Of a stretch of 32,000 bases of DNA, positions 1,556-25,547 are shown piece by piece. Made by a program: the position numbers and the translations under genes. The stretch covers positions 630,001 through 662,000 of the forward strand of contig NC_022093.1 of the NCBI RefSeq assembly GCF_000446015.1. The letters run 5' to 3'. The stretch's first letter is position 1. Every line of letters starts with the position of its first letter. The notes beneath the pieces were generated by a model. It had not been told where the DNA came from and did no database searches. It saw only the letters and a list, made by a program, of their open reading frames with translations. The DNA is from Thermofilum adornatum (GTDB lineage: Archaea; Thermoproteota; Thermoprotei; Thermofilales; Thermofilaceae).

Positions 1556-2303
1556 AAAACCACCAATAGAAGAAACTCTCCACAAACACTCACTCGAGGT
1601 TGCCCAATGCATTAAAAACTCCTGGGAATTCATCGGCCTAAAAAGAAAAATATGGAGGCTCTACGGTATCGACGAGGAAACAGCCGGAGACCTAGTTCTC
1701 ATAGCAGGCCTCCTCCACGACCTAGGAAAAGCAGAAAAAGAAACACAGGAAAAATGCAAGACAGAGTGCACAGATTTCCCACATCACTATGTAACCTCCG
1801 CGATGATAGCCCTCAGGATCGGGTACAACACCATCGACCTCGACCTAAGCCCAGACAACATAGAGGACACCCTCAACCAACTCCTAGCTGGAAAAAATAC
1901 GCAGCTCGAGGCGAGACATATCTTCCTGGCACTAGTTGTCCTACCAGTACTACTACACCACTACTCACAGATCACAAGCGAATACAGCGTCCTCAAACCA
2001 ATCCGCCCAACAATATCAATCGGAGACGAATGCCTAAAACAAATCAACACACTTGCAAACAACGCAAAACAATTCATCAAAACCCCCATCGCATCAAAAA
2101 TCCTAGACACCACGGCAAAAACCCTAAACAAGAACCCAATAGACTTAGGAGTACTACCAAACCTAAGAAACAACCTTCTCCGCATAGGAACATACAAAAC
2201 AGAGAACATACTAATCGAGGCAACCACAGGAATACTAAACAAATGCGACGGACAAACAGCAACAAAAAACCGAAAGAACAAACACAAACAAAAAACCAAA
2301 TAA
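1539..2303 (+). CDS. cas3'': Cas3'' HD-domain nuclease (split cas3, as in type I-A)
   Basis: HD-superfamily motifs are present: HKHSLEV, LIAGLLHDLGK, and LLHHYSQ further on. It overlaps the cas3' stop by 17 nt and lies next to the array. The coding strand is very A+C-rich (sampled line 2221-2280: 80% A+C), which gives a K/N/T-rich tail. Confidence 0.8.
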   Translation: MCYAYRKPPIEETLHKHSLEVAQCIKNSWEFIGLKRKIWRLYGIDEETAGDLVLIAGLLHDLGKAEKETQEKCKTECTDFPHHYVTSAMIALRIGYNTIDLDLSPDNIEDTLNQLLAGKNTQLEARHIFLALVVLPVLLHHYSQITSEYSVLKPIRPTISIGDECLKQINTLANNAKQFIKTPIASKILDTTAKTLNKNPIDLGVLPNLRNNLLRIGTYKTENILIEATTGILNKCDGQTATKNRKNKHKQKTK

Positions 2304-2339
2304 AACCACCCCAAAACTTACACAAAAACCAAGACTTTA

Positions 2340-3478
2340 ATTTCAATTCTTTCTCAGTTGCATCCCAATACATTGAGCAAATGTTTTCAAAGGGCAGCGG
2401 TAGAGCCTTCAATTCTTTCTAAGTTGCATCTACAGCTAATACAGGCCGCAATCGCCATCATGATAACAATCCTTCAATTTTTTCTTAGTTGCATCTAGGG
2501 TGTCAATCGATGTTATTGTTACCTCAACAAATTCAATCCTTCAATTCTTTCTAAGTTGCATCCGGAAATCCTAGAAAATTCGAGTACTTTCTTCTGAACT
2601 ACAAATCCTTCAATTCTTTCTTAGTTGCATCGCGAGTTCTTCGATGTCCCTGTCCCGCAGTGATTTCTGCATCGCCTTCAATTCTTTCTGAGTTGCATCC
2701 TCGATTATGAGGCCGAGGACAAGGGCGATCAGGAAAAAGTTCCTTCAATTCTTTCTGAGTTGCATCTTGGTATATCACGCAAGAGGACTTAGACAAGGCT
2801 CTACAATACGCCCTTCAATTCTTTCTGAGTTGCATCATATTATACCGTAAGCCAACTTTTCACATATGGAAGCATTGCCTTCAATTCTTTCTGAGTTGCA
2901 TCGGCTTGCTTGATGTCCTCTATTTCTGCCGTAATTGCTTTTAGTCCTTCAATTCTTTCTGAGTTGCATCAGCCGGGGCAGGGGAGGACCAGCCCCAAAT
3001 ATACATTATCCTTCAATTCTTTCTGAGTTGCATCACTGTATGATGGAAGAGACTATCACGGCCCCTTCCACACCTCCTTCAATTCTTTCTGAGTTGCATC
3101 TTCTACGTTGCCGACCAGGTTTCAATGGCACTTTATGGTCCTTCAATTCTTTCTGAGTTGCATCCCTCTCCAGCATCCTCGCGGTCGCAGAGACGAAGGG
3201 GACCTTCAATTCTTTCTGAGTTGCATCTCTAACACAGCTGCGCAGCTTTATTTATGAATGGATAACCTTCAATTCTTTCTGAGTTGCATCCAAGGTGTTG
3301 AAAATTATCTTGTATCCATTTATTTCTCCTTCAATTCTTTCTGAGTTGCATCTCAATGTCAGCCCTAGCATACTTAATCTGCCCATTTCCTTCAATTCTT
3401 TCTGAGTTGCATCTTACTGGCTCCGAGGTGCAAGCGAAGCTTCACACAGCTGTCCTTCAATTCTTTCTGAGTTGCATC
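2340..3478 (-). CRISPR. CRISPR array 1: 18 repeats of 25 bp, 17 spacers of 36-45 bp
   Basis: The plus-strand repeat is CCTTCAATTCTTTCTGAGTTGCATC. Repeat starts are 2340, 2406, 2471, 2538, 2607, 2675, 2742, 2812, 2878, 2946, 3010, 3076, 3140, 3203, 3266, 3328, 3389 and 3454. The minus-strand reading GATGCAACTCAGAAAGAATTGAAGG ends in ATTGAAGG, the 8-nt crRNA 5'-handle type, so the functional orientation is minus. Degenerate repeats (2340; CTAAG/CTTAG variants at 2406-2631) sit at the left, leader-distal end. Confidence 0.97.
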
Positions 3479-3724
3479 CGAAATGTTTTACTCGGGCATG
3501 GTTTATATGTTTAATGCTTTTTCCTTCAAGAAGTCTGCAAAACTGCCCTAGCACACAAATTTACACATTGGAAACTTCTGAAACTTCCCTATAGGGAAGC
3601 TTCCCGAAACACCCCGTTTTGGGTCGGGACGTTTTCCCGTAAACCTAAATTTAAAATAAGCTTCCCAATGAGAAACTTCATAAACAACTTTTAGTTTGCA
3701 CATAGGGAAATAGTTGACAAAAAC
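3479..3724 (-). promoter_or_regulatory. CRISPR leader 1 (~246 bp) with TATA-like box
   Basis: It is near-identical by eye to 17263-17506, which flanks array 2. Shared blocks include GGTTTATATGTTTAA, AAAACTGCCCTAGCAC, AAATTTACACATTGGA, CCCCGTTTTGGGTCGGGA, GAGAAACTTCATAAACA and TTGACAAAAA. The minus-strand sequence ACATATAAAC (3501-3510) lies 23-32 nt upstream of the first repeat, which fits an archaeal TATA box. Confidence 0.8.
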
Positions 3725-3780
3725 TTATCCATGTTAACTTGGCAAGGTGACAGTGTCGCTACAAGGACAATTAGGGGTAG

Positions 3781-5580
3781 CTAGGGCGTGCTTGTCTGTT
3801 TTTCTCTGTTTTCTAGGCATGTGTAGATCTCTGCCAATGCTTCTAGTGTTTGTCTGGGTGTTTTGCCTGCTTTTTGCCTGAATGCTTCGAATTCTTGGCG
3901 TGGCACGGCTCCGCCCTCGAGGATCCTGGGGACGACGTGTCTATGTGGGAAGAGCTCGACGTATAGCTTCATGAGCTCTAGGGGGTCGGCGCCGTGGCGC
4001 CTAGCAGTGTCCTCGAACCTGAGGCACGGGTTAACGTTTGCGCTGCGGCTCCTGAACTCTGCGGGTATGTAGAGGCTCGCTATGACGGGCTGGAGCCCCC
4101 TCCTGACTACTAGTGCCTGGCCGTAGGCGAGCTTTCCGAGGAGGCCGGCGTCCCTCCAGCCCGTGACTGTGGCCAGTGTCTCGAGGTTGTCTGGGTCGTT
4201 TGTCGCGAAGACCATGAGTGTGCCTGCGTCCGCGAGCTTCCTGGCTACTCTGGCGAGGCTGTGGCCAACGGCCCATATCGAGACGTTGTACTTTCTGAGC
4301 TCGTCTGCTATCCTGTTTGCGACCTCTGTGTCTCCCAGCCTGTCTGCCTCGTCTAGGACGATTATCCCGCTCCAGCCTCCCCTCACGGCGGAGAAGTATG
4401 CCAGGTAGAGCGCCGATAGGCTGAAGATGTTCTTCGCCTCCTCTGGCAGCGGGCTGAGGTCGACCACTGTCCTCCCCCTGGGCAGGTCGCCGTGGCCGAG
4501 GAGGGCTGGGTGGATCATGGGCCTAAGCCTCCTGATGAGGGCGCCCGCGGCCGCCCGCTCGTCCTCCTGCCTGGAAGAGGACAGCAGCTTCTCGACGTGG
4601 CTGTAGGCGTCCAAGAGTGTCCCGCTCTTCTGGAGAGCCGTGTAGAGCGTGTAGGCGACTATTGGCGAAGCCTTTTCCTTCCACGTTGCCTCTATGACGC
4701 CCAATATGACAGAGTAGGCGACGTCTACGCCCATAGCGAGGGGGTTGATGAAGAGGTCTACCCCTGCCTCGAGGACCCTGTAGCCGTGCCTCTCGAGGAG
4801 CCTGTGCTCGCCCGTGACGTCCAAGACGAGCACGTTCCAGCCCTCGAGCCTGCTCAGCAGGTAGTCCAGGAAGCTACTCTTCCCAGTCCCTGGAGCCCCG
4901 ATAATCGTGAGGCTGTTGTCCGAGCCCTCCCGAAGCCTCAGGCTGTAGCCGTGAAAAACAGGGATCTCCACTGCCCCGACAGCCTCGCCAGTATAGCCGC
5001 CAGAAACCAGGCCACGCGTAGCAATATCCACGTCCAGCGGCGTAAACACGTACAGCGGGTCAAGCCACGAAACCCTGGCAAGCAGGGGCGCCTTCAGCCT
5101 CGAAAACTTCTCGGCCAGCCCCCTGCTACCCTTCCCAAAGACCACCGCGTAGCCCCTATACACAGAGCCATACAGCAGGGCGCTCGAAACATACGGCTCA
5201 AATGCGCTCGGCAACCCGTACCTATACGCCCTCTGAAGCCCCTCATAGAACTTAGTAGCGTCACGCCTATACAGCACGAGGCCCACGTGGCCCCTAAGAG
5301 GCACAGCAACAGGCACACGAATCCTCAAAAAACGAGCCTCGGGAAACACGGGCTCAACACGCCAAACCCTCCACCCAGCGCCGACAGCAACCTCCTCAAA
5401 GACCCCCGCATCCCTCTCCCCCACCCCTATCAGCAAGCCCCTACCAAAATTAGCCACACCAAGCCTCCTAACCCCAGAAGCAAAAACAGGCCCAAGCCAC
5501 ATCTCCCCAGCAACAGCATCAACACCAAACCACACCGCCATACCAAAAACACAAGCAACAAAAATAAAAGGTGGAAACAA
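3781..5580 (-). CDS. HerA/DUF87-like (FtsK-HerA superfamily) P-loop ATPase with hydrophobic N-terminus
   Basis: Walker A is LTIIGAPGTGKSSFL and Walker B is GIIVLDEADRLG. The N-terminal sequence MFPPFIFVACVFGMAVWFGV looks membrane-associated. The 599-aa ORF is GC-rich. The family call rests on motif spacing only. Confidence 0.55.
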   Translation of the reverse strand: MFPPFIFVACVFGMAVWFGVDAVAGEMWLGPVFASGVRRLGVANFGRGLLIGVGERDAGVFEEVAVGAGWRVWRVEPVFPEARFLRIRVPVAVPLRGHVGLVLYRRDATKFYEGLQRAYRYGLPSAFEPYVSSALLYGSVYRGYAVVFGKGSRGLAEKFSRLKAPLLARVSWLDPLYVFTPLDVDIATRGLVSGGYTGEAVGAVEIPVFHGYSLRLREGSDNSLTIIGAPGTGKSSFLDYLLSRLEGWNVLVLDVTGEHRLLERHGYRVLEAGVDLFINPLAMGVDVAYSVILGVIEATWKEKASPIVAYTLYTALQKSGTLLDAYSHVEKLLSSSRQEDERAAAGALIRRLRPMIHPALLGHGDLPRGRTVVDLSPLPEEAKNIFSLSALYLAYFSAVRGGWSGIIVLDEADRLGDTEVANRIADELRKYNVSIWAVGHSLARVARKLADAGTLMVFATNDPDNLETLATVTGWRDAGLLGKLAYGQALVVRRGLQPVIASLYIPAEFRSRSANVNPCLRFEDTARRHGADPLELMKLYVELFPHRHVVPRILEGGAVPRQEFEAFRQKAGKTPRQTLEALAEIYTCLENREKQTSTP

Positions 5581-5649
5581 AAGAACCTTTTAGACAAAAC
5601 AAACTGTTTGATTTTACTAAGACTAGCATTTTATTATAACCCGTGTTAC

Positions 5650-7059
5650 CTACAAGATAAAACGAAGATACTTAGGTTTCAATAATTTAATAGATTTTTT
5701 TCTACTTAATATATACGACAGTGCCGCATAAATGTATCCCTTGCCGCTGATAATGTCTTGAAGAACATTTTTATCGCTTTCAAGAGCTTTTCGATATTCC
5801 TCATAGGTTTTGAAAGTAGATACTTCGTTATAGACAAATATCATTCTCAGAAGCATATCACGTAAAGTTTTTTTAATTTTTTTCATTTGAGTTTGAGTGT
5901 ATACGTTTTTAAGAGTCTCAAGCATATATCTTCTGTATTGGTTTACAATTTTTAAAGCCTCATCGATATTATCGACTGTTAGGGACATGCTATTTAGTGA
6001 CTCCATTTTAATATCCTCAAATCTTGGAAGAATATTGTTCCATTTTTGGTCTAAGCTTTCTTTATAATTAAGTATGTCCGCAGGTGCCATTGCAATGATT
6101 GAAATTCTTTTTGAAAAAGGTCTCACAAGGAGAAGAGCTTCATAGCTGTTAGAATTACCAAAAAATATCTTAGCGTCATGTGGACAGCCTCCAATTACTT
6201 CGGAATCTCCAATTCTTAATTTTATTTGAGAGATAAACACCTTTTCTGCAATCTTCACATGAGTGATTACCGGAACAACAAAGTCGCCGGGAAAAACGTA
6301 TTGATAGTTATATCTTGGGATTGGAATTAAATATTTTGGATCCATGCTAATTTTGCCTAGTAACAGTTTTGATACAAAGTTAGGAGTTGCATAAAGCCCT
6401 TCCATTTCATCCAGGGCTGATTTGATTGATAGCCAATCTTTAGGGACACGGCTGATATTGATTTTAATCTTTCTAGACGGTCTTATTCTTAGAAAAGGTT
6501 CATAGAGGATTATCTGTTTTAAGGTGAGCTGTGCTCCGATTATTAGATTTCCAGATGTAGAGTTCAAATATTCCTGAAAATAAGATGAAGGGACACGTAT
6601 GTATACAGGTTTCTGTAGAGCCATGCTGTACAAAATTAAGTGCGCTCTATTACCTTCAAAGTATGCGTATATCCCTTTAAATTCCATTTCATTAATTTTT
6701 TTACCGCATGGGGGTATAATTTCTGCAATACCTGATTTTTCGCGTCCTTGAGAGTATTCAAGTAATTTTAGTGGGTCTTTTCTTATTTCATCGCTGATTC
6801 TCTTTTGAAATCTTACATCTTCGGCGCATTGATTATACATATCTTCCAGTATTCTTCCCATAAGTGGATGACTGCTTAGTAATTTTTTTAATCTGCGAGT
6901 CTTCTTCCATACATCTTGGTTCTCGTAACTTTCGAAAGAGTCAAGAAAAGAGAGAAATTCTCTACTATACCTCGAATACTCTCTTACGTGAATAATGATA
7001 TTATAGAGGTCTGACAAAGCAATTGCAAACGGTATTGGGTAGAAATACTCATCCAGCAT
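5650..7059 (-). CDS. Hypothetical protein (469 aa), last gene of the DISARM-like operon
   Basis: It is a long intact ORF in AT-rich DNA. Its ATG at 7059 overlaps the stop of the upstream PLD gene by 11 nt. I recognise no catalytic motif. Confidence 0.7.
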   Translation of the reverse strand: MLDEYFYPIPFAIALSDLYNIIIHVREYSRYSREFLSFLDSFESYENQDVWKKTRRLKKLLSSHPLMGRILEDMYNQCAEDVRFQKRISDEIRKDPLKLLEYSQGREKSGIAEIIPPCGKKINEMEFKGIYAYFEGNRAHLILYSMALQKPVYIRVPSSYFQEYLNSTSGNLIIGAQLTLKQIILYEPFLRIRPSRKIKINISRVPKDWLSIKSALDEMEGLYATPNFVSKLLLGKISMDPKYLIPIPRYNYQYVFPGDFVVPVITHVKIAEKVFISQIKLRIGDSEVIGGCPHDAKIFFGNSNSYEALLLVRPFSKRISIIAMAPADILNYKESLDQKWNNILPRFEDIKMESLNSMSLTVDNIDEALKIVNQYRRYMLETLKNVYTQTQMKKIKKTLRDMLLRMIFVYNEVSTFKTYEEYRKALESDKNVLQDIISGKGYIYAALSYILSRKKSIKLLKPKYLRFIL

Positions 7060-7858
7060 GTATGCTCACAGAGGGTTGTTTAGCCAGATTCCATATTTGT
7101 TGGAAAAGTCGCAATAACTGATTAACTATTTCACCTTTGAAAAGAACCGCTATATCATAATTTGACAAGAAATGGACTTCTGTCATATTGAAGCTTCCTA
7201 TCATAGCCATGTTTTCTGTTATAATCATTTTTAAATGAATGCCTCGAATTTTTGTATAAATTGTTTTTTGACCATATTTTATTAAACCATATTGACCAAT
7301 CACTTTATACTCAAGATTAGGAAAAAGAGAATTCTTTAAGCGTTGCAAACTACCTATGTTCTCTTTTTTGAATTCCGTTAATATCCTTAGATTAGGGATA
7401 TTCCGTATAAATGCTTTATAGTTTGAGAGAAGACCTGTGAAGGTTGAATCGATATAAGGCACAGCAATATTTAATTCTCTTTCAGCGCTTAATATTATTT
7501 CTCCTATGGCGTCAAAAAAGGATGGAAAACTTTCAAAAGATTTTCCTAAGTCTTCTTTTAAAGCTCCCGACAAGATAATGGATACATCAGGACTCGAAAT
7601 AAACTTTTGCATTAGGTCTTTATCCTCATTAACTGCCCAAAGGGTGGTTGTCAAAGGTCGTGTCTCATCAAAAAACTCATCTTTTACTGCCTTTACAAGT
7701 CCTATCCTTCGCAGCTCTAATAGACATTTAATTATCTGGGATATGCTAACTTCATCTGGGAATTGCTTCTTTATCTCCGGAACACTCTTGGGACTCTCCC
7801 TTAAGATTGAAAGAATTTTTTCTTTCATTTCTGGGGCGCAATTATTTTTAAACGACAT
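7049..7858 (-). CDS. wHTH-fused PLD-family (HKD) nuclease, DrmC-like
   Basis: There is a single HKD motif: IRGIHLKMIITENMAMIGSFNMT (H-x-K-x4-E-x5-GSxN). The N-terminal EKILSILRESPKSVPEIKKQF...LLELRRIGLVKAV looks like a winged helix. The ATG at 7858 is preferred; a TTG at 7882 is also open. Either start overlaps the DUF1998 gene stop (7848-7850). Confidence 0.7.
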   Translation of the reverse strand: MSFKNNCAPEMKEKILSILRESPKSVPEIKKQFPDEVSISQIIKCLLELRRIGLVKAVKDEFFDETRPLTTTLWAVNEDKDLMQKFISSPDVSIILSGALKEDLGKSFESFPSFFDAIGEIILSAERELNIAVPYIDSTFTGLLSNYKAFIRNIPNLRILTEFKKENIGSLQRLKNSLFPNLEYKVIGQYGLIKYGQKTIYTKIRGIHLKMIITENMAMIGSFNMTEVHFLSNYDIAVLFKGEIVNQLLRLFQQIWNLAKQPSVSIHAG

Positions 7859-9227
7859 AATGTGCCAACCTTTTCTTGTCAATTATAAAATTCAATGAGA
7901 AACGATTGAGAACATAGTTTAGCCACATACAGTTTGCGGAGAACAGGCACGCCTTGCATGCCAGATTGCATGAACGAGGACATTCAGTTCTCTTGCCAAC
8001 CAAGGCTATATAATCTATTTTTAGAGTATTATCCTTCTCAATTAAACTTCTTACACCACCTATGCCGCCTGGAGAATTGTCGTAGATTAGAACTTGGTAT
8101 ATGTCCCTTTCTTGATCTACTTTAATAGCTTCGCCAAATTCATGCTCACTTAAACCAGCAATAAGTGGAGCTGTTATGAGGAATAGATGCGCCAATGTAT
8201 GGGTTATTACGGTAGGGGTTGCGTCACGCGATGAAAAACCCATTTTCTGAAGACTTTCTTGAGTTTCCTTTACTTTTGATGGATCCAAATTTATAAGTAA
8301 TCCTTCTGTTTCAATTTTTCTCCCAATAACTTCAATGGCATTATCATTCCCAATAGAGACTATAGGAATGCGCTCCCTTTTTCCGGCGTAAGGAGTACCT
8401 GCCAACAGGAAAAGAGTTAACTGGTATACTTTTGCCTTGGTAAAAGCTATATCTATTATTCCTGGCATGCTTTCCTTAGGAAAATTTATTTCAATTTTAT
8501 CATTATCAAGTGTCTTAAACAGGTTGATCGAAAAAGGCTTAGTAAGGGACTCGCTTGGTGGGACAATTCTATAAATCGTGTTTTCTCTCCTGGGAGGACG
8601 GACAATTGCATATGGAACGCTAGTAGAAGAATTACCTCTCCCCTTGCCACATACATTTATCTGAGTTGAACCAAGCGGTAGCTGTAGTTTCCATGGACAT
8701 TTTGAACTTCGATTCACGTCTGGACATGCATAAATTAGCGAGCTAACAGGTCTCTCAGTACTAATTCGAACAATGCGTTTCAATACTTTGTTTTTTCTGT
8801 CAACGTCGCAGTATGCGTTAACAAATTTTGCAACAGGAATAAATAAATACTCTTCACTTCTCCTATAATAAGTAGAGAAGTTAGAAACTTGAAAATATCT
8901 ATTTGGAGGGGTTAGGAACTTAGGGGCGGCAATATAGGCCTGAATAATTTTACCCCCACAATCACACTTGAAGTTTTTGGGTACCTCATCATCTCTATAT
9001 ATTTTGCCACATTTAGAGCACCAAAAATACCTTAAAGAAATTAGGTTATTTTCTAATTCAGCTAAAACGTTTTCAGGCATTATTACTTTTACCTTTTTTC
9101 CCCTCACTTGGCGAGCTAAAAGGTCAAATACTGTGCTCAACTGGTACATCTCGCTTTTAAGTCTGTCAAGTTCTCTTGCGAGCTCATCAAGAAGACTATA
9201 ATTGATATCTTGTGACAAGACCCTCAC
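7848..9227 (-). CDS. DUF1998 (MrfA-type Zn-binding domain) protein, DrmB-like
   Basis: The C-terminal signature is LIYDNSPGGIGGV followed by the Cys cluster ECPRSCNLACKACLFSANCMWLN...LNR. The N-terminus carries a Zn ribbon, CSKCGKIYRDDEVPKNFKCDCGG. Its GTG start overlaps the helicase stop (GTGA at 9224-9227). Confidence 0.75.
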   Translation of the reverse strand: MRVLSQDINYSLLDELARELDRLKSEMYQLSTVFDLLARQVRGKKVKVIMPENVLAELENNLISLRYFWCSKCGKIYRDDEVPKNFKCDCGGKIIQAYIAAPKFLTPPNRYFQVSNFSTYYRRSEEYLFIPVAKFVNAYCDVDRKNKVLKRIVRISTERPVSSLIYACPDVNRSSKCPWKLQLPLGSTQINVCGKGRGNSSTSVPYAIVRPPRRENTIYRIVPPSESLTKPFSINLFKTLDNDKIEINFPKESMPGIIDIAFTKAKVYQLTLFLLAGTPYAGKRERIPIVSIGNDNAIEVIGRKIETEGLLINLDPSKVKETQESLQKMGFSSRDATPTVITHTLAHLFLITAPLIAGLSEHEFGEAIKVDQERDIYQVLIYDNSPGGIGGVRSLIEKDNTLKIDYIALVGKRTECPRSCNLACKACLFSANCMWLNYVLNRFSLNFIIDKKRLAHYVV

Positions 9228-11779
9228 CCATCTTCTAGAAAAGACTTTATATTTACGGTATTTCCTTCAATCATTTTCACAACGTAGAATATACCCCTAA
9301 AAGAAATGACTTGCCCCCTACTTGCTCGCCTGATTGCCGTGGACAATTCTCTCGGTCTCGTGTCAGATGCCGAGCCAAATGAGGGACTAAATTTGAATAA
9401 AACGGCTTTTTCGGCATGCCTGAGGTTGTAAATTTGATAGATGTTGTCGATTTTTTTCAAAATACTTTCGATTTTAGTAGATTTTTCGAAAGGACCTATT
9501 GACTGGCTAATGCGATCTATAGCCTCGCGCAAAGCATCTTCAAAAAGATTATTGTCTAATGACCCTATAACTCCTTGAATATGGTTTATCATCTTTAAAT
9601 GTAGCGAGTCTCTTTCGTCAAATAGAACAGCTTTAAGACGTGTTAAGACTTGATCGTCTACTGCCGACTCTTCATCATATAGTTTTCCTATGTTAATCTT
9701 CTCTGAGGCTACCGACAAATAATCAAAGATTGCCCTTGTTATTGTTCTGCGTATAGCTTCTTGATTGTTGGACTTTATTGTATAACTTTCCAAGGACATT
9801 GCATCGCTTCTTAAAGCCGGGTCGCATAGAAGTCTATAGTTTTGATAGTAATAGTAATCTATGGGTGTTTGTGGGTCAAATATAACAATAATTAACGCAT
9901 CCCTGTTCCGACCCGCCCGCCCAATACGCTGCGTGAAATCTGAAATATAAAACGGCATCCCATGAATAACAGCTACATCAAGTGAGCCATAATCTACGCC
10001 TACTTCAAGAGTCTTTGTCGCTACCAGCACCTGGTACACTTTTTTGCTGAAATCTTGCTCTATCCTTATTCTGTCTTGTTCGTAATCAGTTGTATGACCG
10101 CCTACCCTTATACCCTGTATGTTTGCAATCTCATCATTTAGCCCGCGCCATAGTTCATTACTTTCCGCTAGTGAATTGACGAAAACAATTGTTTGTGGTT
10201 TTTTCTCCTTTGCTAAATCATAAAGTTTACCTATAGCTCTTATACATGTAGCCTGCATCTCATAGGTCTTGGGCATTAGGAAAAGAAATATTCTTTGTGA
10301 TTTAACATTCACACCTTTATCGTAATTAGCTTCGAATACTTCTATTGACTTAGCATCTTCTCCAAGTAAACTAGCTGCAAACATTTTAGGACTATGAATT
10401 GTTGCGCTAGAGATAATATAGGTAGGTCTCCAATCTGGCAGTTCGTTGTGATAAGTTCTAATAGCCTGCTCAAGTCTCTTCAATAAATAATATGTTTGTA
10501 TCCCAAAACTCCCCCTTAGCATATGTGCTTCATCTAGAACAATAGCGATCGGATGACCTAGCTTCTGCATAGGTATTAGCTCTGTAGACCCACATCTGCA
10601 TTTTCTTTTTTGAACAGGATATGTTGACCCGCATTTTTTGCATACTTTAACACTAGAGTATCCTATAATGGTTAATTCGGAGGGATTGCGCATCAAGACA
10701 GCATTGATCATGTCTTGATCTGTTAACAAAATATCAGGCGGTTCGGAGTAAATTGCCTCTCTTGTTAGTTTTATCCATTTATTCACCCAATCACTATCTC
10801 TATTCACAGGGCAATCCTCATAGTCGCACGACAATTTTTCCAAGGAAAATTTTTCTTCTTGTCTTTCAAAGTAAAGTGTGAGCGGGCGTTCATGAATGGG
10901 ACATTTAATCATTGTAACTTCTGGTTTATCTTCTCCGCTGGCAAACCTGCTTTTTATATTTCCATGCAATATTCCCATTGTAATTGTAAGGTCCTCCCGT
11001 TTTTGCCTGCGTAAATAATCATTAAAGTACCAGAGCAGATGAGCCAATTCGTCGGCCTGATCATTTGCAAGTGCCTTTGTTGGATAAAATAGAATAGCTT
11101 TACAGCCCTTGTGACCTTTGGCTTTATAAATAGCTGAGGCAAAAATTAAGGGAAGCAGAAAAGCATAGGTTTTTCCGCCAGAGGTCCTCGCAACTATTGC
11201 AAAATGTCTTTTTTCAGTATTCAAACCCAGAAGTGTTAGAGATATTTTCTTCAAGGCAGCTTCCTGGTACTTATATAACTTTTTTATACCTAACTGCTCA
11301 AGGGAATATTGAAGAGCGCTACCCACTATTTCAATGTCGTCGTGCTTAACTCCCGACCGTATAAATTGTTTGGCTTCATAAATTAGATTCCTTAGAGATT
11401 CTTTTACTTCGTCTTCAGAGGCTTCAATTGAAAAAACAGGCTCTTTAGCTATATTCCAGTCTCTAAACTTAAACCTGTTTCCTTGGTCGTCTTCAGCGAG
11501 GAGACAATTTATTGGATTAATTCCCTGGAGACCAAACTTGTCCCATTTCCATTCAACATTGTATCCTTCGAAGGCAACTTCACCCTCTACTTCAAATAGG
11601 TGTCCCATTGACCATTTATAGCCATTGCTATCATAGACGTATACTGTCGGTTTTTTTCTTTCTACAATTTTGTTATTGTATTGTTTCTTGTCGAAATAGC
11701 CACCGAGGCATATGAGTAAGCTCTTTAGAAAATATGTTTCTCCATAGTTTTTCTCTCTCGTAATACTTATCCCGATCAC
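9224..11779 (-). CDS. SF2 DEAD/DEAH-box helicase with inserted Zn ribbon, DrmA-like
   Basis: Motifs are ARTSGGKTYAF (I), IVLDEAHML (II), ISSATI (III), VATKTLEVGVDYG (V) and QRIGRAGRN (VI). A CKKCGSTYPVQKRKCRCGS insert lies between the RecA lobes. About 150 aa at the N-terminus are unassigned. Its GTG start overlaps the upstream gene's stop (GTGA at 11776-11779). Confidence 0.8.
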   Translation of the reverse strand: MIGISITREKNYGETYFLKSLLICLGGYFDKKQYNNKIVERKKPTVYVYDSNGYKWSMGHLFEVEGEVAFEGYNVEWKWDKFGLQGINPINCLLAEDDQGNRFKFRDWNIAKEPVFSIEASEDEVKESLRNLIYEAKQFIRSGVKHDDIEIVGSALQYSLEQLGIKKLYKYQEAALKKISLTLLGLNTEKRHFAIVARTSGGKTYAFLLPLIFASAIYKAKGHKGCKAILFYPTKALANDQADELAHLLWYFNDYLRRQKREDLTITMGILHGNIKSRFASGEDKPEVTMIKCPIHERPLTLYFERQEEKFSLEKLSCDYEDCPVNRDSDWVNKWIKLTREAIYSEPPDILLTDQDMINAVLMRNPSELTIIGYSSVKVCKKCGSTYPVQKRKCRCGSTELIPMQKLGHPIAIVLDEAHMLRGSFGIQTYYLLKRLEQAIRTYHNELPDWRPTYIISSATIHSPKMFAASLLGEDAKSIEVFEANYDKGVNVKSQRIFLFLMPKTYEMQATCIRAIGKLYDLAKEKKPQTIVFVNSLAESNELWRGLNDEIANIQGIRVGGHTTDYEQDRIRIEQDFSKKVYQVLVATKTLEVGVDYGSLDVAVIHGMPFYISDFTQRIGRAGRNRDALIIVIFDPQTPIDYYYYQNYRLLCDPALRSDAMSLESYTIKSNNQEAIRRTITRAIFDYLSVASEKINIGKLYDEESAVDDQVLTRLKAVLFDERDSLHLKMINHIQGVIGSLDNNLFEDALREAIDRISQSIGPFEKSTKIESILKKIDNIYQIYNLRHAEKAVLFKFSPSFGSASDTRPRELSTAIRRASRGQVISFRGIFYVVKMIEGNTVNIKSFLEDG

Positions 11780-12495
11780 GGCAGCGTGATGTATTTTGTA
11801 TCTCTTGATGAAACCTGTCCATTCTTTGCAGCCGTTTTATTTATAGAAAACTTAAAATCTTTATCCTGCCTAGAGCCCAAATATTTTTCAATATCGGGAA
11901 AGCTGTCTTTTAAATCAATGAATAAATGATTGCCCTGTGAGTGCTCAAGTCTAGCATAGATCTTTGAGCCAAGAGGTAGTCCCACCGCAATATCTACTCT
12001 ATTATTGTTATTCCAAGAAATTTGCCTGCGTAAATTCTTTTGGAACACCGAATTTATATCTTTTCTATTAATTTTCACTGTGACATCGATTATATTTTCA
12101 TTAATTAACGTAAACTCAATCTTCACATCAGCAAAGTTTTCCTCAGTGTCATCTGGACAGGGCGGGGCAAGTCTAATGGCAAAACTGTAGCCTAAGTTTA
12201 CTTTTCTCTCTTTATGAGACGTAAGAGGACTTATTTTAGAAAACTCAAATCCTGTTAGGTACCATGCATGAAAAGATTTAGAAAGACCTTCGTCTTCTTC
12301 TTCAGTTTCTTCTGCTTCCTCTTCATCAACTGAAACAACTTTATTAGAATCGTCAAGGAGCTTATAGTCTTCCAAAAACTTCTCATAAAGAGCAAATGGA
12401 AGAGGACCTAAAACAGCTATATGCGGTTTTTCAGGATGCTTTCGATCTTTTAGGTATACTACTAGTTGCTCGGCTATACTTTCAAAAACATTCAT
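11776..12495 (-). CDS. Hypothetical protein (~239 aa) with acidic tract, first gene of the DISARM-like operon
   Basis: The ORF is intact, with an ATG at 12495 (a GTG at 12498 is also in frame). It contains the acidic run DEEEAEETEEEDEG. It appears translationally coupled to the helicase. No motif was recognised. Confidence 0.65.
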   Translation of the reverse strand: MNVFESIAEQLVVYLKDRKHPEKPHIAVLGPLPFALYEKFLEDYKLLDDSNKVVSVDEEEAEETEEEDEGLSKSFHAWYLTGFEFSKISPLTSHKERKVNLGYSFAIRLAPPCPDDTEENFADVKIEFTLINENIIDVTVKINRKDINSVFQKNLRRQISWNNNNRVDIAVGLPLGSKIYARLEHSQGNHLFIDLKDSFPDIEKYLGSRQDKDFKFSINKTAAKNGQVSSRDTKYITLP

Positions 12496-12518
12496 CACAG
12501 TTAATTTTTATATACTTG

Positions 12519-12532
12519 CATATAAATTTTCT
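12519..12532 (-). promoter_or_regulatory. Putative TATA box for the five-gene operon (leaderless-type spacing)
   Basis: The minus strand reads AAAATTTATA at 12530-12521, about 26-35 nt upstream of the ATG at 12495. This spacing is typical of crenarchaeal leaderless transcripts. The call rests on the sequence pattern only. Confidence 0.3.
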
Positions 12533-12846
12533 GACTCATAATATATTTGATTTTTCTATGACAGCATGTTCCACAAAAATTTATCGTTTTCAAAGTTCTC
12601 TATAAAAGTATGCCCATTTACTTTATTACGACTTCCCAATGATTAATTTTAAATGAAACGATATCATATGTTAACTTCGCCGGGGAAATTACACATGACA
12701 ACAGAAGTATCGTTTAAAGTTTACAAGAATATTCCTCCTATGAATAGAGAGAGATACGAGGTCGGAAGCAATCAGGCAATATACAATACTCTTCGAAGCG
12801 AAATAAAAGAAAAAAATGGATAGAATTGCTGAAGTTCATCGGTAAA

Positions 12847-13527
12847 ATGTATATGAACACTTCGAATTGGAAGCTAGCGCAAGAAAAATCAAAAATCCTT
12901 AGATCAGAAATCTTAAAATGGGTATATAAACACATGCGAGATTTTCCTTGGAGAAGAACAAATGATCCCTACGTAGTTCTTGTAACTGAGAAACTTCTTC
13001 AGCAAACAGACTATGGTCATGTAAAAAAAGTGTGGTATAAGTTTTTTGAGAAATTTCCTACTGTTAACGCTCTAGCACAAGCAAAAGAAGAAGAAATAGC
13101 CGAAATACTTAGACCCCTCGGCTTATGGAGACAGAGAGCGAAACAACTTAATGCCATTGCGGGTACTCTGGTGGCAAAATTTGGAGGACAAATTCCATGC
13201 AGCTACAAGGAGCTACTATCACTTCCCGGCGTAGGAGACTACATTGCAAGAGCCACCTTAGTGTTTGCTTGCGAGATTCCTACTTACCTAATCGATGTTA
13301 ATACCAAGAAAATCGTTCAGAGATTTATCTTCTATCCCACTCAGGTGACTGAAAAAGAAGTAGCCAAGGTATTAGAGATTGCAACACCAAAAAGTCCAAG
13401 AGAATGTAAACTTTTCAACTGGGGAATGATAGACTTTTCCGCGCTTGTCTGCACAAAAAAACCTAAGTGTGATATATGTCCTCTCAGGGAAAATTGCGCC
13501 TATTATTCTTACACAATTATTGGCTAG
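12847..13527 (+). CDS. HhH-GPD DNA glycosylase of the EndoIII/MutY/Mig family with 4Fe-4S cluster loop
   Basis: Motifs are FPWRRTNDPYVVLVTEKLLQQT, the HhH LLSLPGVGDYIARA, IDVNTKKIVQRF and the C-terminal Cys cluster CTKKPKCDICPLRENC. The ORF is open from a TTG at 12826; the ATG at 12847 is preferred. Its 3' end overlaps the convergent C5-MTase 3' end by 11 nt. Confidence 0.8.
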   Translation: MYMNTSNWKLAQEKSKILRSEILKWVYKHMRDFPWRRTNDPYVVLVTEKLLQQTDYGHVKKVWYKFFEKFPTVNALAQAKEEEIAEILRPLGLWRQRAKQLNAIAGTLVAKFGGQIPCSYKELLSLPGVGDYIARATLVFACEIPTYLIDVNTKKIVQRFIFYPTQVTEKEVAKVLEIATPKSPRECKLFNWGMIDFSALVCTKKPKCDICPLRENCAYYSYTIIG

Positions 13528-14749
13528 GTGGAATCCTTGCTTCTACAAGAGACTTTAGCACAGCTTCAGCCACCCTTTTTGCTAGCAAGGGTGGCACTGC
13601 GTCTCCTATTAGAGCATATTTATCGACAACATTTCCAATGAATTTATATCCATCCGGGAAAGTTTGTATCCTGGCACATTCCCATACACTTAATCTTCTC
13701 GGCTTCTTATCTGAGTTGTTTTCAAACTCCCATTTATCTTTCCCTACATGAATCATTCTAGGCGAGTCTGGATGCAGTGGTATGTGCCTAGCGCTTGCAA
13801 GTATAATATAGCTAGGCTCATCCCACGATTTGTACCTATTCCTGGACATGTAGATAGGCGAAAAGTTGCCCTCATAAACCTCATCTCCTACTCTCTTCTC
13901 AAATGGAGGTAAATCTCCAATTGCATCTCTCAAAGTCCTATATTTCTCAATAACCTTTCCACCTGCACTCATGAATGGCTTTGGAGCATGGGTAGGTTCT
14001 GGGAATCTTATAGTTATCCCTAAACTTCTTTTAGCGCCAATGAAAATTACCCTTTCTCTTTCTTGAGGAACACCGTAATCCAAGGCATTTAATATTTTCC
14101 ACTCAACATCATAACCGATCCTGTCAAAAGCTTGCTTTATGGCTTCCACAGCCGTTACCAAGTAATTTTTCACATACTCGACGAGTTTTTTTTGATAAGG
14201 ATCCAAAATATTATTTTCTCTAATTATATACTGGGGGGCTGCCCGCCTTTTCCTACCTACACTTTGAAGATCAAGCAACTTATTTAAAGCTTCAAGAACT
14301 CTTCTTTTTTCATCCTCGTCTATGTCTTCTCGAATGGTAAGCATGGTCAATATTCCTTTAACGTTCTCCATTACAAAAACGTAAGGCTGAAGCCTTGCCA
14401 CCACTTCCACATAGTCATAGAAAAGCTTAGCTCTGGGATCACTTGGATCGCGCTTGCCAGCTAAGCTGAACGCCTCACACGGCGGACCACCAATAATAAC
14501 GTCTACACGTCCTCCAGTCAAGCTGTAAAGTTTCTCCTTAACAGACCTATCTCTAATATCGCCGCAGATAACCTCAACTTCGGGGTGATTTGCCTTATAG
14601 GTTTCGCATGCCCTTTTCCAAATGTCTACAGCAGCTAAGACCTTAAACCCATAGCCCTGGTACTCAGCTTGCTTGAATCCCAAAGTCAACCCGCCAGCAC
14701 CGCAAAAGAGGTCCACCAAGGTATAGTACCTCATTTTCGCAACCCTCAC
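13517..14749 (-). CDS. dcm: DNA (cytosine-5) methyltransferase
   Basis: C5-MTase motifs appear in canonical order: DLFCGAGG (I), GGPPCEAFS (IV), ENV (VI), QERERVIFIG (VIII) and IGDAVPP (X). Confidence 0.92.
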   Translation of the reverse strand: MRVAKMRYYTLVDLFCGAGGLTLGFKQAEYQGYGFKVLAAVDIWKRACETYKANHPEVEVICGDIRDRSVKEKLYSLTGGRVDVIIGGPPCEAFSLAGKRDPSDPRAKLFYDYVEVVARLQPYVFVMENVKGILTMLTIREDIDEDEKRRVLEALNKLLDLQSVGRKRRAAPQYIIRENNILDPYQKKLVEYVKNYLVTAVEAIKQAFDRIGYDVEWKILNALDYGVPQERERVIFIGAKRSLGITIRFPEPTHAPKPFMSAGGKVIEKYRTLRDAIGDLPPFEKRVGDEVYEGNFSPIYMSRNRYKSWDEPSYIILASARHIPLHPDSPRMIHVGKDKWEFENNSDKKPRRLSVWECARIQTFPDGYKFIGNVVDKYALIGDAVPPLLAKRVAEAVLKSLVEARIPPSQ

Positions 14750-14798
14750 CTCATAAATTCATTGATCTTTAAAAGGAGGCATAAAAGTGTACATACAT

Positions 14799-15014
14799 TT
14801 AATGTTCACGGTCATTCCCACTCAGTAAATCCTTTTCCTTTACTGTTGAAGAAAGAATAGACTTTTCAGAAAGCCAAGCCAGGACAATATTCCTCACAAT
14901 CTCGGCGTCCTCATTACCCATAAAGCCGCGCAAACGCTCAATAAGACTCCATTGGCGCTCTGTAAATGTTACTTGAATCCTTTTAACGCTTTTTCTCTCT
15001 TCAGTGTGCTTCAT
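14799..15014 (-). CDS. Ribbon-helix-helix (CopG/Arc-like) DNA-binding protein, possible controller of the MTase
   Basis: KRIQVTFTERQWSLIERLRG...DAEIVRNIVLAWLSE fits a beta-alpha-alpha RHH fold. It lies 49 nt upstream of the MTase start on the same strand. The ORF is open to 15032; the internal Met at 15014 is preferred. Confidence 0.55.
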   Translation of the reverse strand: MKHTEERKSVKRIQVTFTERQWSLIERLRGFMGNEDAEIVRNIVLAWLSEKSILSSTVKEKDLLSGNDREH

Positions 15015-15272
15015 AAAACACATCCAAGACACATTAAACTCAGTGGCTTATAAAGATTTCACCAGCAATGCCAAAAGTAAACAACAGGATATAATTAGAC
15101 ATTAATCAAAAGTATCGGTAATTATCCTTGCTCGTGCTAACCATAGGGAGCCTTAACACAAATCTCATAATGCTACCAAAATCACCGTATAACACGACAT
15201 ATAGAAGCTAAATGCATTGAGTATGTAGTTCCAATAATTTCTGTGACGTCAAAATCCTTGGCATACTTAGTA

Positions 15273-16370
15273 TTACCCTCTAAGCATAAAACCATGCTCT
15301 GAGCTTACGTCTTTGCCTGTCTCTCTGTCTACTAGGCCTTTCGCCTCGGCAACTATTTGAGAGTATCTGGTGTTGTTCTCTAAGTACCTCCAGTAGTTTT
15401 CAGCCCTAACTGGTCCAGCCGGCGTAGTGTAGCTTATATCTAGCACGTACCACACGCCGTCTATCTTGACCTCTGGCAGGGCATGATCGTAGTCTATGAA
15501 TGCAACTACTCTAGCCTCGCAACCTAGGACATCTCTTAGCAGGGTAGTCAGCTCAATCGCGAAGTCCTCGCATGTGCCAGTATCGGCAATGGCTATAATG
15601 TCGTCACCTGGTATCATTAGCTGTCTAGGCTTTGGAACATTAACCCTATATGTGAACGTGAAACTTGCCCGCGTTGCTTTCGCAATGCTCCACGCGTTCT
15701 CCAAGGTGCATCGTGTCCCGTAAATGCTCTTCATCTCTTTTACTTTGACTGGATAAAGCCACTGCCCAAGAATCACCACTCCCGTGTAGGACACCAACAA
15801 TATGGATAACAGTAAAACAGTGACAAAGGTAGGTAAATCCCTTATATAGCGTCTAGCGAGACCCGCAAAGATGCCAGCAATGATAACTGGAACTAGATAA
15901 TTTACAGTGAAGACCAGGACTAGCACGCCCCCCTTATCAACAGACACAAAATAGGGACTGTGAAGCACCTCAAACGACACATACACAAAATTCGCGTAGA
16001 CCACGTACAAAGCAAACAAAACGACACCGAGAAAGAGACCCTCAGATATCAATAATAAAAAATCATGTAAAACTCGTAACCCTTGGATTATTTTACCAGC
16101 CAATTTCATGATTGAACCTGGAATCTTGAATTCTATTTTTTCCTTGATGATTACTCTACCAGCTATCTCTATAATTAAAATTAGAAGTGCAAGCATGAAA
16201 CTAAGAACAGCGAGCGGGCCCGCCTCTTTAAGGAAAAGATAAAACTGTATAATTGCCCCAAGAACAAAGACACTTAAGCTAACATGTTGCCACCGGACAA
16301 GCTCCATGCTCCTCTTACCGATTTTTGCTATCCTTGCAGAGACACCCTTGCAAAAAGCTTTACCAACCAT
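15273..16370 (-). CDS. Multi-pass membrane protein with C-terminal transglutaminase-like Cys-His-Asp domain
   Basis: The N-terminal ~200 aa are hydrophobic, with several predicted TM helices. The C-terminus has GTCEDFAIELTTLLRDVLGCEARVV ... DHALPEVKIDGVWYVLD, matching the transglutaminase-like core pattern (C ... H ... D). Confidence 0.65.
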   Translation of the reverse strand: MVGKAFCKGVSARIAKIGKRSMELVRWQHVSLSVFVLGAIIQFYLFLKEAGPLAVLSFMLALLILIIEIAGRVIIKEKIEFKIPGSIMKLAGKIIQGLRVLHDFLLLISEGLFLGVVLFALYVVYANFVYVSFEVLHSPYFVSVDKGGVLVLVFTVNYLVPVIIAGIFAGLARRYIRDLPTFVTVLLLSILLVSYTGVVILGQWLYPVKVKEMKSIYGTRCTLENAWSIAKATRASFTFTYRVNVPKPRQLMIPGDDIIAIADTGTCEDFAIELTTLLRDVLGCEARVVAFIDYDHALPEVKIDGVWYVLDISYTTPAGPVRAENYWRYLENNTRYSQIVAEAKGLVDRETGKDVSSEHGFMLRG

Positions 16371-25408: not shown

Positions 25409-25455
25409 GGTTGGCGCTTCCCAGAGTGAAACATATAGGCTATGTTAATAAATAG

Positions 25456-25547
25456 TGGGCCCGCCGGGATTCGAACCCGGGACCACCGCCGCTCCTAGGA
25501 AATTGTGCCTTGTAAGGGCGGCATCCTAACCACTAGACTACGGGCCC
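25456..25547 (-). tRNA. tRNA-Val: tRNA-Val (anticodon UAC) with ~19-nt intron in the anticodon loop region; no encoded CCA
   Basis: The minus strand reads GGGCCCG TA GTCT AGTGGTTA GGAT G CCGCC CTTACA [AGGCACAATTTCCTAGGAG] C GGCGG TGGTC CCGGG TTCGAAT CCCGG CGGGCCC A. All four stems pair. The intron lies at or next to the canonical 37/38 position. Confidence 0.85.

Follow-up and report, generated by a model that had tools for sequence, protein, structure and literature searches.

A probable class 2-type DISARM locus with a frameshifted drmA gene in Thermofilum adornatum 1910b

[quoted passage not shown] The system of Bacillus paralicheniformis was described by Ofir et al. 2018 (summaries in 10.1101/2021.12.28.474362 and in PMC9142583), and drmA, drmB and drmE were each found to be required for protection (10.1101/2021.12.28.474362). 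For class 1, the cryo-electron microscopy study of DrmAB from Serratia sp. SCBI described loading on single-stranded DNA with a 5' overhang, a trigger loop and a lower ATPase activity on methylated DNA, the complex being activated by the unmethylated 5' overhang and DrmC being dispensable (PMC9142583). The DISARM/Dpd branch of the YprA helicase family, where the YprA helicase of DISARM is naturally divided between DrmA and DrmB, has been described by Bell et al. (10.1101/2025.09.15.676423), and archaeal class 2 DISARM was previously reported in Freyarchaeia (PMC11529989). The present work concerns a locus of this type in Thermofilum adornatum 1910b, situated in a stretch of 32,000 nucleotides (assembly GCF_000446015.1, contig NC_022093.1, positions 630,001 to 662,000 of the forward strand), which is called the window and whose own numbering is used throughout.

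The locus is very probably a class 2-type DISARM, belonging to a variant restricted to thermophilic and anaerobic archaea (Thermoproteota and Bathyarchaeia) and present here as a partly decayed copy. As in B. paralicheniformis, DrmA, a DrmB that is a separate DUF1998 protein, a DrmC of the phospholipase D (PLD) family, a C5 methyltransferase DrmMII and one extra gene are found, with a tight operon. Unlike in B. paralicheniformis, the extra gene, called X (469 aa, predicted tandem oligonucleotide-binding (OB) folds), stands after drmC and has no detectable similarity to DrmE, a Mig-type glycosylase is added as a conserved member, the host is a hyperthermophilic archaeon and drmA is frameshifted. 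The DrmA-DrmB pairing is the same as in the Serratia complex, whose sequences lie beyond the reach of a PDB sequence search at E 1e-3; DrmD (SNF2) and DrmMI, an N6-adenine methyltransferase, belong to class 1 and are not present in the window. Among complete genomes of cultured organisms, the nearest relative found is that of Pyrobaculum oguniense TE7 (CP003316.1, 415-439 kb; L008/L016 in our numbering of related loci). It shares with the window a C5 methyltransferase, Mig, DrmA (1,095 aa), DrmB (460 aa), DrmC (244 aa) and a fourth gene, whereas its DrmA is a single open reading frame (ORF) of only 31% identity, all its genes lie on one strand and its fourth gene, of 328 aa, shows no sequence relationship to X. 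In the literature searched, no description was found of a thermophilic-archaeal variant with X, Mig and a winged helix-turn-helix (wHTH) DrmC.

The DISARM core and its class

The original prediction, made from the DNA letters, placed five overlapping genes on the minus strand, with a DISARM-like core of helicase, DUF1998 protein and PLD nuclease, and a class 2-type C5 methyltransferase about 1 kb upstream on the same strand. The five ORFs and the methyltransferase gene were all found in place (Table 1), and profile searches bore out the identity of the core. The 851-aa protein matched the Pfam families DEAD and Helicase_C above their curated cut-offs. DrmB, the zinc-binding DUF1998/MZB partner of DrmA encoded by a separate gene directly after it, matched MZB/DUF1998 (PF09369) over residues 345-428 (33.8 bits, cut-off 24.2), and DrmC matched PLDc_2 (PF13091; 38.5 bits, cut-off 27). 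The PADLOC models PDLC02570 (DrmA, on the 851-aa protein), PDLC02580 (DrmB) and PDLC02596 (DrmC) were covered end to end, at 851/851, 459/459 and 269/269 positions and with 2,058, 1,104 and 629 bits, respectively. Since these scores amount to about 2.4 bits per residue over the whole length, which is the level of a self-match, the three models appear to have been built from these or near-identical sequences, and would go back to the list of Ofir et al. 2018; the core is thus already catalogued in a public defence-system database (PADLOC-DB). Further models were matched by DrmA (PDLC02569, E 2e-100; PDLC02575, PDLC02573 and PDLC02571) and by DrmB (PDLC02578, E 1e-25), while DrmC was recognized by seven DrmC models in all. 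The Pyrobaculum-type models PDLC02569, PDLC02578 and PDLC02586 match the core independently, and the second-best models, of 1,095, 460 and 244 positions, have the lengths of DrmA, DrmB and DrmC of P. oguniense TE7.

The 851-aa protein is a superfamily 2, YprA-like helicase with zinc-binding inserts; its best PDB match was YprA/MrfA (6ZNP), and its helicase motifs are intact. A kinship with repair helicases of the Lhr/Hel308 type, which would have spoken against DISARM, is not borne out. The best NCBIfam matches were DpdJ and other YprA-like helicases, none of which reached its cut-off. These matches and the YprA/MrfA relationship agree with the DISARM/Dpd branch of the YprA family. A housekeeping YprA/MrfA repair helicase, which is a single polypeptide with fused OB-CON-DUF1998 regions found alone or with the MrfB exonuclease, was ruled out: DUF1998 is here encoded by a gene of its own, with a PLD nuclease and a methyltransferase as neighbours, in agreement with the DISARM-specific architecture of 10.1101/2025.09.15.676423. 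A Dpd (7-deazaguanine) system was also rejected, as the DpdJ models matched only partially (E 5e-36 in three stretches; NCBIfam 113 bits, cut-off 800), and no queuosine or deazaguanine-synthesis domain was seen in the 19 window ORFs covered by the scan, nine of them at 3.7-16.4 kb and ten elsewhere.

The three members of the core triplet are all present, DrmA (a pfam00271 helicase without a DUF1998 domain of its own) with a frameshift, and are associated with a C5 methyltransferase (pfam00145). The latter matched PF00145 at 248 bits and the PADLOC DrmMII model PDLC02650 over its full length at 802 bits, and its FCGAGG, PPCE and ENV motifs are intact. By the definition of 10.1101/2021.12.28.474362, the predicted products assign the locus to class 2. 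In the same 19 ORFs, no SNF2 (DrmD) or N6-adenine methyltransferase (DrmMI) domain of class 1 was found. No PADLOC match to DrmE was given by the window ORFs or by the fourth genes of 10 related loci, nor did the NCBIfam DrmE models match in the window, so the lack of a DrmE- or DrmD-like gene claimed at the outset was confirmed by the Pfam, PADLOC and NCBIfam scans. A match to a catalogued DISARM subtype, accessory genes included, was obtained in part: core and DrmMII are catalogued, DrmE is absent and X is without PADLOC match. A tblastn search of plasmids with DrmA returned generically annotated helicases and one DpdJ, and no annotated DISARM locus. In a scan of GTDB species-representative genomes with the pattern YPTKALAND, which is present in the window DrmA, no T. 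adornatum locus was returned; either another genome without the locus represents the species or the record is missing.

In DrmC, the HxK...GSxN motif of the PLD family is intact (HLKMIITENMAMIGSFN). For the N-terminal region of about 110 residues, all ten orthologues compared (the window and nine others) gave sub-threshold Pfam matches, every one of them to wHTH families (MCM_C, TFIIE-alpha, MarR, IclR, ArsR, Fur and TrmB). The winged helix proposed earlier for this protein is thus weakly but consistently supported, and the predicted winged-helix-like N-terminus is a real difference from most DrmC proteins, for which an N-terminal four-helix bundle is reported (Bell et al., 10.1101/2025.09.15.676423). 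PDB sequence searches with DrmB and DrmC gave nothing significant.

A frameshift in drmA and the loss of a PLD gene

The 240-aa ORF upstream of the helicase had been regarded, together with the 469-aa X, as an unassignable partner gene. Of the 70 DrmA relatives listed, nearly all have 1,050-1,150 aa, about 240 aa more than the 851-aa query, of which they cover 92-100%; three are shorter than 900 aa, none shown as a comparable split, and each of the others is one ORF of some 900-1,430 aa. Two single-ORF DrmA proteins among the closest relatives, P0020 and P0022, match the 240-aa ORF with their residues 1-239 (40-42% identity, E 5e-46 and 1e-51), and the 851-aa ORF resumes at residue 244 of P0020 with 57% identity. 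Insertion of one base at the junction restores an ORF of 1,091 aa, collinear with nine relatives and with zero residues lost. Moreover, the metagenomic contig L092 (JGI 3300029625), whose DNA is 97-98% identical to window positions 10582-15458, carries a DrmA of about 1,090 aa in one ORF, which reads ...KYITAAVIGISITREK... across the junction. At this place the DNA is ATCACAGCTGCC in L092 and ATCAC-GCTGCC in the window (over a longer stretch, ATCACAGCTGCCGTGATT and ATCAC-GCTGCCGTGATC), so that one A is missing from 1910b, between 11785 and 11786 and outside any homopolymer. Because of the alignment to residues 1-239, the restored collinearity and the single ORF of L092, the 240-aa ORF is taken to be the N-terminal domain of DrmA, severed by a single-base deletion.

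This result modifies the reading of the gene overlaps. The GTGA overlap between the 851-aa ORF and drmB (9224-9227) and the 11-nt overlaps of drmB with drmC (ATGTCGTTTAA) and of drmC with gene X (ATGCTGGATGA) were read directly and stand as predicted. The GTGA at 11776-11779, between the two drmA fragments, was read as well; it is the scar of the deletion, a by-product of the shifted frame and not a designed gene junction, and what looks like a GTG "start" for the 851-aa ORF corresponds, in an intact DrmA, to the conserved codon of Val243. Programmed frameshifting at the junction was rejected, as the sequence lacks a slippery heptamer and the extra base is present in the closest strain.

The possibility of a new system of five genes, reusing a DISARM-like core with two novel partners of 240 and 469 aa, was left open by the original prediction. 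Neither partner matches Pfam, PADLOC or NCBIfam; in a word-indexed search of 5.8 billion clustered proteins the 240-aa protein found only itself. As for its fold, the model of this domain (predicted local distance difference test score (pLDDT) 65) gave no Foldseek match at E <0.1. For the 240-aa gene this proposal is refuted by L092 and by the collinear alignment to residues 1-240 of DrmA, the core proteins already are PADLOC DISARM models, and the intact relatives consist of four genes with methyltransferase and Mig, not of five plus one. A new five-gene system is hardly credible; what is kept together in the relatives is DrmA-DrmB-DrmC-X with methyltransferase and Mig, and of the two partners X retains its standing, being conserved with the core.

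It can also be asked whether the two DrmA pieces are a functional fission, both made by termination-reinitiation at the TGA/GTG and assembled with DrmB as a three-piece helicase. The break lies exactly at a domain boundary without loss of a residue, the GTG of the downstream ORF overlaps the stop codon, the helicase motifs are intact, and the natural division of the YprA helicase in DISARM (10.1101/2025.09.15.676423) offers a precedent. Between 1910b and L092, dN/dS is below 1 in both pieces (0.47 and 0.42, for 0.24 and 0.26 in the methyltransferase and Mig genes, with few substitutions). On the other side, no comparable split was shown among the 70 relatives and the closest strain is unsplit, neither a Shine-Dalgarno-like nor a slippery sequence is visible at the junction, and a second lesion affects the same locus. 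A DrmA functional as two pieces is considered rather unlikely, and we hold a sequencing error to be equally unlikely as the source of the frameshift.

The second lesion lies between Mig and drmA, where L092 has 1,242 extra bases that code for a PLDc_2 protein of 466 aa containing two HxK motifs. In L092 this gene is complete (2616-4016, minus strand; Pfam PLDc_2 match), whereas the window keeps only about its first 48 codons, frameshifted by an extra A in an A-run, with a deletion junction at 12831-12839. Strain 1910b has lost this gene through a 1,242-nt deletion. No homologue of the 466-aa protein was found in any other related locus, and a PDB sequence search gave nothing significant; it could be a strain-specific addition or a nuclease cognate to the methyltransferase. 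With methyltransferase and Mig intact, lesions at two places on the nuclease/helicase side are the pattern expected of a decaying restriction arm, and this DISARM copy looks partly decayed. Since the helicase is split in 1910b, restriction is probably impaired, and we lean towards a restriction arm that is inactive in this strain.

Protein X, the methyltransferase and the Mig-type glycosylase

Protein X gave no match in Pfam, NCBIfam or PADLOC, in the last case even at E = 10. Four relatives came from scanning 1.84 billion representative proteins exhaustively with HMMER, one more from a profile search and three from locus mining, about eight in 1.8-5.8 billion proteins. The gene stands directly after drmC in five other related loci (L002, L003, L005, L009 and L013) and, where the contig continues, is followed by C5 methyltransferase and Mig, as in L001, L003, L005 and L013. 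The order is DrmA-DrmB-DrmC-X-methyltransferase in L003 and L005 (with Mig next in L005), DrmA-B-C-X-Mig-methyltransferase in L013 and DrmA-B-C-X in L009. Because of these consistent contexts beside DrmC, X is a true, conserved fourth component of its sub-clade, rare and clade-specific. In L009, a metagenomic locus, the X homologue is in two pieces: an 81-aa ORF (5481-5726), matched by hhalign to the N-terminal end of the X family (probability 91%, E 1e-6), precedes a 380-aa ORF (5734-6876). Either a further split or an error of sequencing may be the cause. The 264-aa gene that follows X in L002 was considered as a relative of the 240-aa ORF and rejected, being unrelated. Its product contains an HExxH motif (HEVSHMLLH; L002 2110-2904), as does an unrelated 403-aa protein encoded before the methyltransferase in P. 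oguniense (HELVHRCQH; L008 6798-8009). The two may be metalloprotease-like add-ons; they have no Pfam or PADLOC match, and no counterpart among the window ORFs of 3.7-16.4 kb in the comparisons run.

Apart from L006 and L023, the more distant loci have a gene of 328-574 aa after that of DrmC or after the corresponding post-DrmB gene, directly or past a short gap; L007 reads methyltransferase-DrmA-B-C-(415 aa)-Mig and P. oguniense methyltransferase-Mig-DrmA-B-C-(328 aa). These fourth genes form at least five families, between which, as between them and X, no significant similarity is seen by sequence or profile; none matches DrmE. BLASTP, hmmsearch, jackhmmer and hhalign comparisons of X with the fourth genes of L006, L007, L008, L012, L014/L021, L017/L018/L022 and L019/L020 gave no significant link, the best result being a non-significant E of 0.035 over 246 columns with L014/L021.

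An AlphaFold2 model of X (pLDDT 80.5, predicted TM-score (pTM) 0.77, from a 6-sequence alignment) is reasonably confident. It has a helical domain at each end and, between these, two beta-barrel units (about 112-204 and 260-326) connected by helices, the predicted tandem OB core spanning about 112-326. In Foldseek searches of the PDB, the HIN-200 domains of p202, AIM2 and IFI16 were matched at E 1e-5 to 6e-4, and RPA70 and Teb1 more weakly. Among viral models the sole match below 1e-3 was the baculovirus single-strand-binding protein LEF-3 (E 9e-4), and a PDB sequence search with the X profile gave nothing significant. The predicted core resembles HIN-200, RPA70 and LEF-3 proteins in its two OB folds with a helical linker, and differs by its identity of 6-11%, its TM-scores of 0.35-0.39 and its additional helical N- and C-terminal domains. 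Because the TM-scores are low, the likeness is taken as one of fold and not as homology. From the model, X is probably a tandem OB-fold DNA binder.

The opposite-strand gene between methyltransferase and core was confirmed as a glycosylase gene, on the plus strand; this gene and that of the methyltransferase are convergent, with an overlap of 11 nt. The protein matches the Pfam families HhH-GPD and EndIII_4Fe-2S and has a [4Fe-4S] motif. Its best match among solved structures was Mig.MthI (1KEA, E 7.8e-45, for 5e-32 with MutY and 1e-19 with EndoIII), and PADLOC labels it "Type II nicking endonuclease" (E 4e-46). These matches point to a Mig-type T:G/U:G mismatch enzyme, the specificity being predicted. 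A C5 methyltransferase stands beside DrmABC in at least ten related loci, and a Mig homologue accompanies it in ten independent loci of the close DrmA clade, wherever the contig continues past the methyltransferase; the sole exceptions, two in number, are contigs that break off within the methyltransferase gene or immediately behind it. No methyltransferase or Mig was found within 10 kb in 67 more distant YprA-helicase loci (0/67). The position of Mig follows that of the methyltransferase in nine of ten loci. Because the pairing holds in all related loci that could be checked, the glycosylase gene appears to be a conserved part of the methyltransferase module and not the interruption it was first taken for.

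The pair is similar to Mig.MthI/M.MthTI of the Methanothermobacter plasmid pFV1, also an HhH-GPD T:G glycosylase (here matched over the full length) beside a C5 methyltransferase in a thermophile. That pair forms a simple restriction-modification cassette, whereas in the window the pair is embedded in DISARM and the glycosylase activity is predicted. Deamination converts 5-methylcytosine to thymine and is fast at 80 °C, and a T:G glycosylase limits the mutational cost; Mig.MthI with M.MthTI and Vsr with Dcm have this same repair role. By analogy, the simplest reading would make Mig the repair companion of the methyltransferase.

Two other explanations bear on this module. In the first, the methyltransferase, Mig and the lost 466-aa PLD protein would form an independent type II-like cassette beside a DrmABC-X locus without methyltransferase of its own. 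PLD-family restriction enzymes such as BfiI exist, and this proposal also agrees with the order methyltransferase, Mig, PLD in L092, with the varying position and orientation of the methyltransferase-Mig pair relative to DrmABC and with the additional PADLOC score of the methyltransferase as a generic type II enzyme. It is difficult to reconcile with the occurrence of C5 methyltransferase and Mig within a few kb of DrmABC in 10 independent loci of relatives and in none of the 67 distant ones, with the lack of a homologue of the 466-aa protein in other loci, and with L003 and L005, where the methyltransferase starts 0-18 nt from the X stop on the same strand. We consider an independent cassette improbable. 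In the second, the HhH-GPD protein would itself be the defence effector, a base-excision "restriction glycosylase" acting on unmethylated or deaminated invader DNA. Mig is strictly conserved in the clade, in L007 it comes after the fourth gene and not after the methyltransferase, and restriction glycosylases do exist in the R.PabI family, the family to which the known ones belong, with no HhH-GPD member mentioned in PMC10273834. The closest characterised relative, Mig.MthI, is a methyltransferase-linked T:G repair glycosylase, and Mig tracks the methyltransferase in the nine loci counted above, which makes an effector role very unlikely; repair beside the methyltransferase is preferred.

Genomic setting, proposed mechanism and significance

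The host is, as predicted, a hyperthermophilic crenarchaeon, T. adornatum 1910b, with a growth optimum of 80 °C (PMC6965361). Of eight proteins looked up, six are identical to 1910b records in the range N186_03685 to N186_03720. The region is a defence island, again as had been claimed, with Cas3 helicase and HD genes (62-2303) and a CRISPR array of 18 repeats (about 2333-3478). The G+C content is 0.33-0.38 across 6-13 kb and 0.41-0.62 in most of the flanks. The HerA/DUF87-like ATPase gene follows gene X on the same strand, 70 nt downstream, in a region where G+C is 62% (4001-5000), compared with 35-38% for the DISARM genes; it is probably of separate foreign origin. On the other side, L092 is 98% identical only up to window position 15458, where the contig ends, so that the 3' end of the transglutaminase-like gene is inside the shared stretch. 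Upstream of drmA, AT-rich TATA-like motifs, TTTATAT and TATATAAAAA (12505-12530, minus strand), lie 10-30 nt before the candidate start codons (GTG at 12498, ATG at 12495); such motifs would fit an archaeal promoter and an operon transcript with little or no leader.

Table 1. Position of the DISARM genes and of neighbouring features in the window
Feature	Coordinates	Strand	Basis or remark
drmA N-terminal fragment, 240 aa, N186_03705	11776-12498	-	ORF found at this place; its TGA stop arises from the 1-nt deletion
drmA helicase fragment, 851 aa, N186_03700	9224-11779	-	Pfam DEAD + Helicase_C, PADLOC DrmA
drmB, 459 aa, N186_03695	7848-9227	-	Pfam PF09369, PADLOC DrmB
drmC, N186_03690	7049-7882 (277 aa from TTG) or 7049-7858 (269 aa from ATG)	-	PLDc_2, PADLOC DrmC
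gene X, 469 aa, N186_03685	5650-7059	-	conserved position after drmC in relatives
drmMII C5 methyltransferase, 410 aa, N186_03720	13517-14749	-	PF00145, PADLOC DrmMII
Mig-type glycosylase, 226 aa from annotated start	12847-13527 (ORF reaches back to 12826)	+	HhH-GPD, 1KEA
remnant of 466-aa PLD gene	12696-12839	+	blastn with L092 and translation
Cas3 helicase, C-terminal part	62-1555		type I CRISPR-Cas remnant or edge
Cas3 HD nuclease	1539-2303		type I CRISPR-Cas remnant or edge
CRISPR array	about 2333-3478		18 copies of 25-nt repeat CCTTCAATTCTTTCTGAGTTGCATC, period 61-70 nt
HerA/DUF87-like ATPase, 599 aa	3781-5580	-	weak PADLOC "mad8" match, E 7e-11
transglutaminase-core-like protein, 365 aa	15273-16370	-	PF01841, E 6e-5; just upstream of the methyltransferase
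tRNA-Val(TAC)	25455-25547	-	sole tRNA in the window, about 10 kb from the low-G+C island

By analogy with the DISARM systems studied, DrmMII would C5-methylate the host DNA as a self mark, and DrmA-DrmB would load on the single-stranded 5' ends of invading DNA and be activated when this DNA is unmethylated. DrmC, as a wHTH-PLD nuclease, is the candidate effector and may be dispensable. Protein X would fill the slot held elsewhere by DrmE or DrmD, as a tandem-OB accessory aiding substrate capture by DrmAB or its recruitment. Mig would remove the T from T:G mismatches left by deamination of 5-methylcytosine and would not be a defence effector. In 1910b, with DrmA split into 240 and 851 aa by the one-base deletion and the 466-aa PLD gene removed by the 1.2-kb deletion, the restriction arm would be impaired or inactive, the methyltransferase and Mig remaining intact.

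Several points weigh against a class 2-type DISARM in partial decay. The NCBIfam DISARM DrmA equivalog models cover only about 70 residues of the helicase, far under their cut-offs, and archaeal DISARM is known from genes alone. X has no detectable similarity to DrmE, its role as a DrmE analogue is suggested by position only, and the OB-fold TM-scores (target-normalised) are low, with a root-mean-square deviation of about 8 Å, for a model from six sequences. As for decay, the dN/dS of both DrmA pieces (0.42-0.47) gives no sign that it is long-standing, the substitutions being too few to discriminate. The missing base could be an error of the 1910b assembly, although the site is not a homopolymer. 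The DrmA pieces could also both be made, by translation across the overlapping stop and start, and join as a working helicase; the DrmA/DrmB split is one that DISARM already tolerates (10.1101/2025.09.15.676423). With these points weighed, the observations of the original prediction are confirmed and its interpretation is partly supported, and the class 2-type variant described here is retained.

A broader proposal, which must be seen as tentative and on the doubtful side when its parts are taken jointly, is that Thermoproteota and Bathyarchaeia carry a distinct DISARM subtype with an exchangeable post-DrmC cassette, a wHTH-targeted DrmC and an obligate Mig. The cassette would be a fast-evolving slot occupied by at least five unrelated families of 330-575 aa, of which X would be the tandem-OB, HIN/SSB-like version (SSB, single-strand-binding protein), and it would supply the sensing of invader DNA or the recruitment that DrmE or DrmD give in bacteria. 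Mig would be needed to make self-marking by C5 methylation sustainable at high temperature.

The current understanding of DISARM is not overturned by this locus. The annotation of N186_03705 as "hypothetical protein" needs to be changed to that of a gene fragment, and detection rules that demand DrmE will mis-file this archaeal DISARM clade. Strain 1910b, with its damaged restriction arm, and L092, with an intact one, constitute a natural experiment on the decay of such systems. Protein X offers a concrete, testable accessory for the way in which DrmAB is directed to foreign DNA, a question still open for DISARM, and the strict pairing of methyltransferase and Mig suggests that C5 self-marking at high temperature needs a dedicated T:G repair enzyme.

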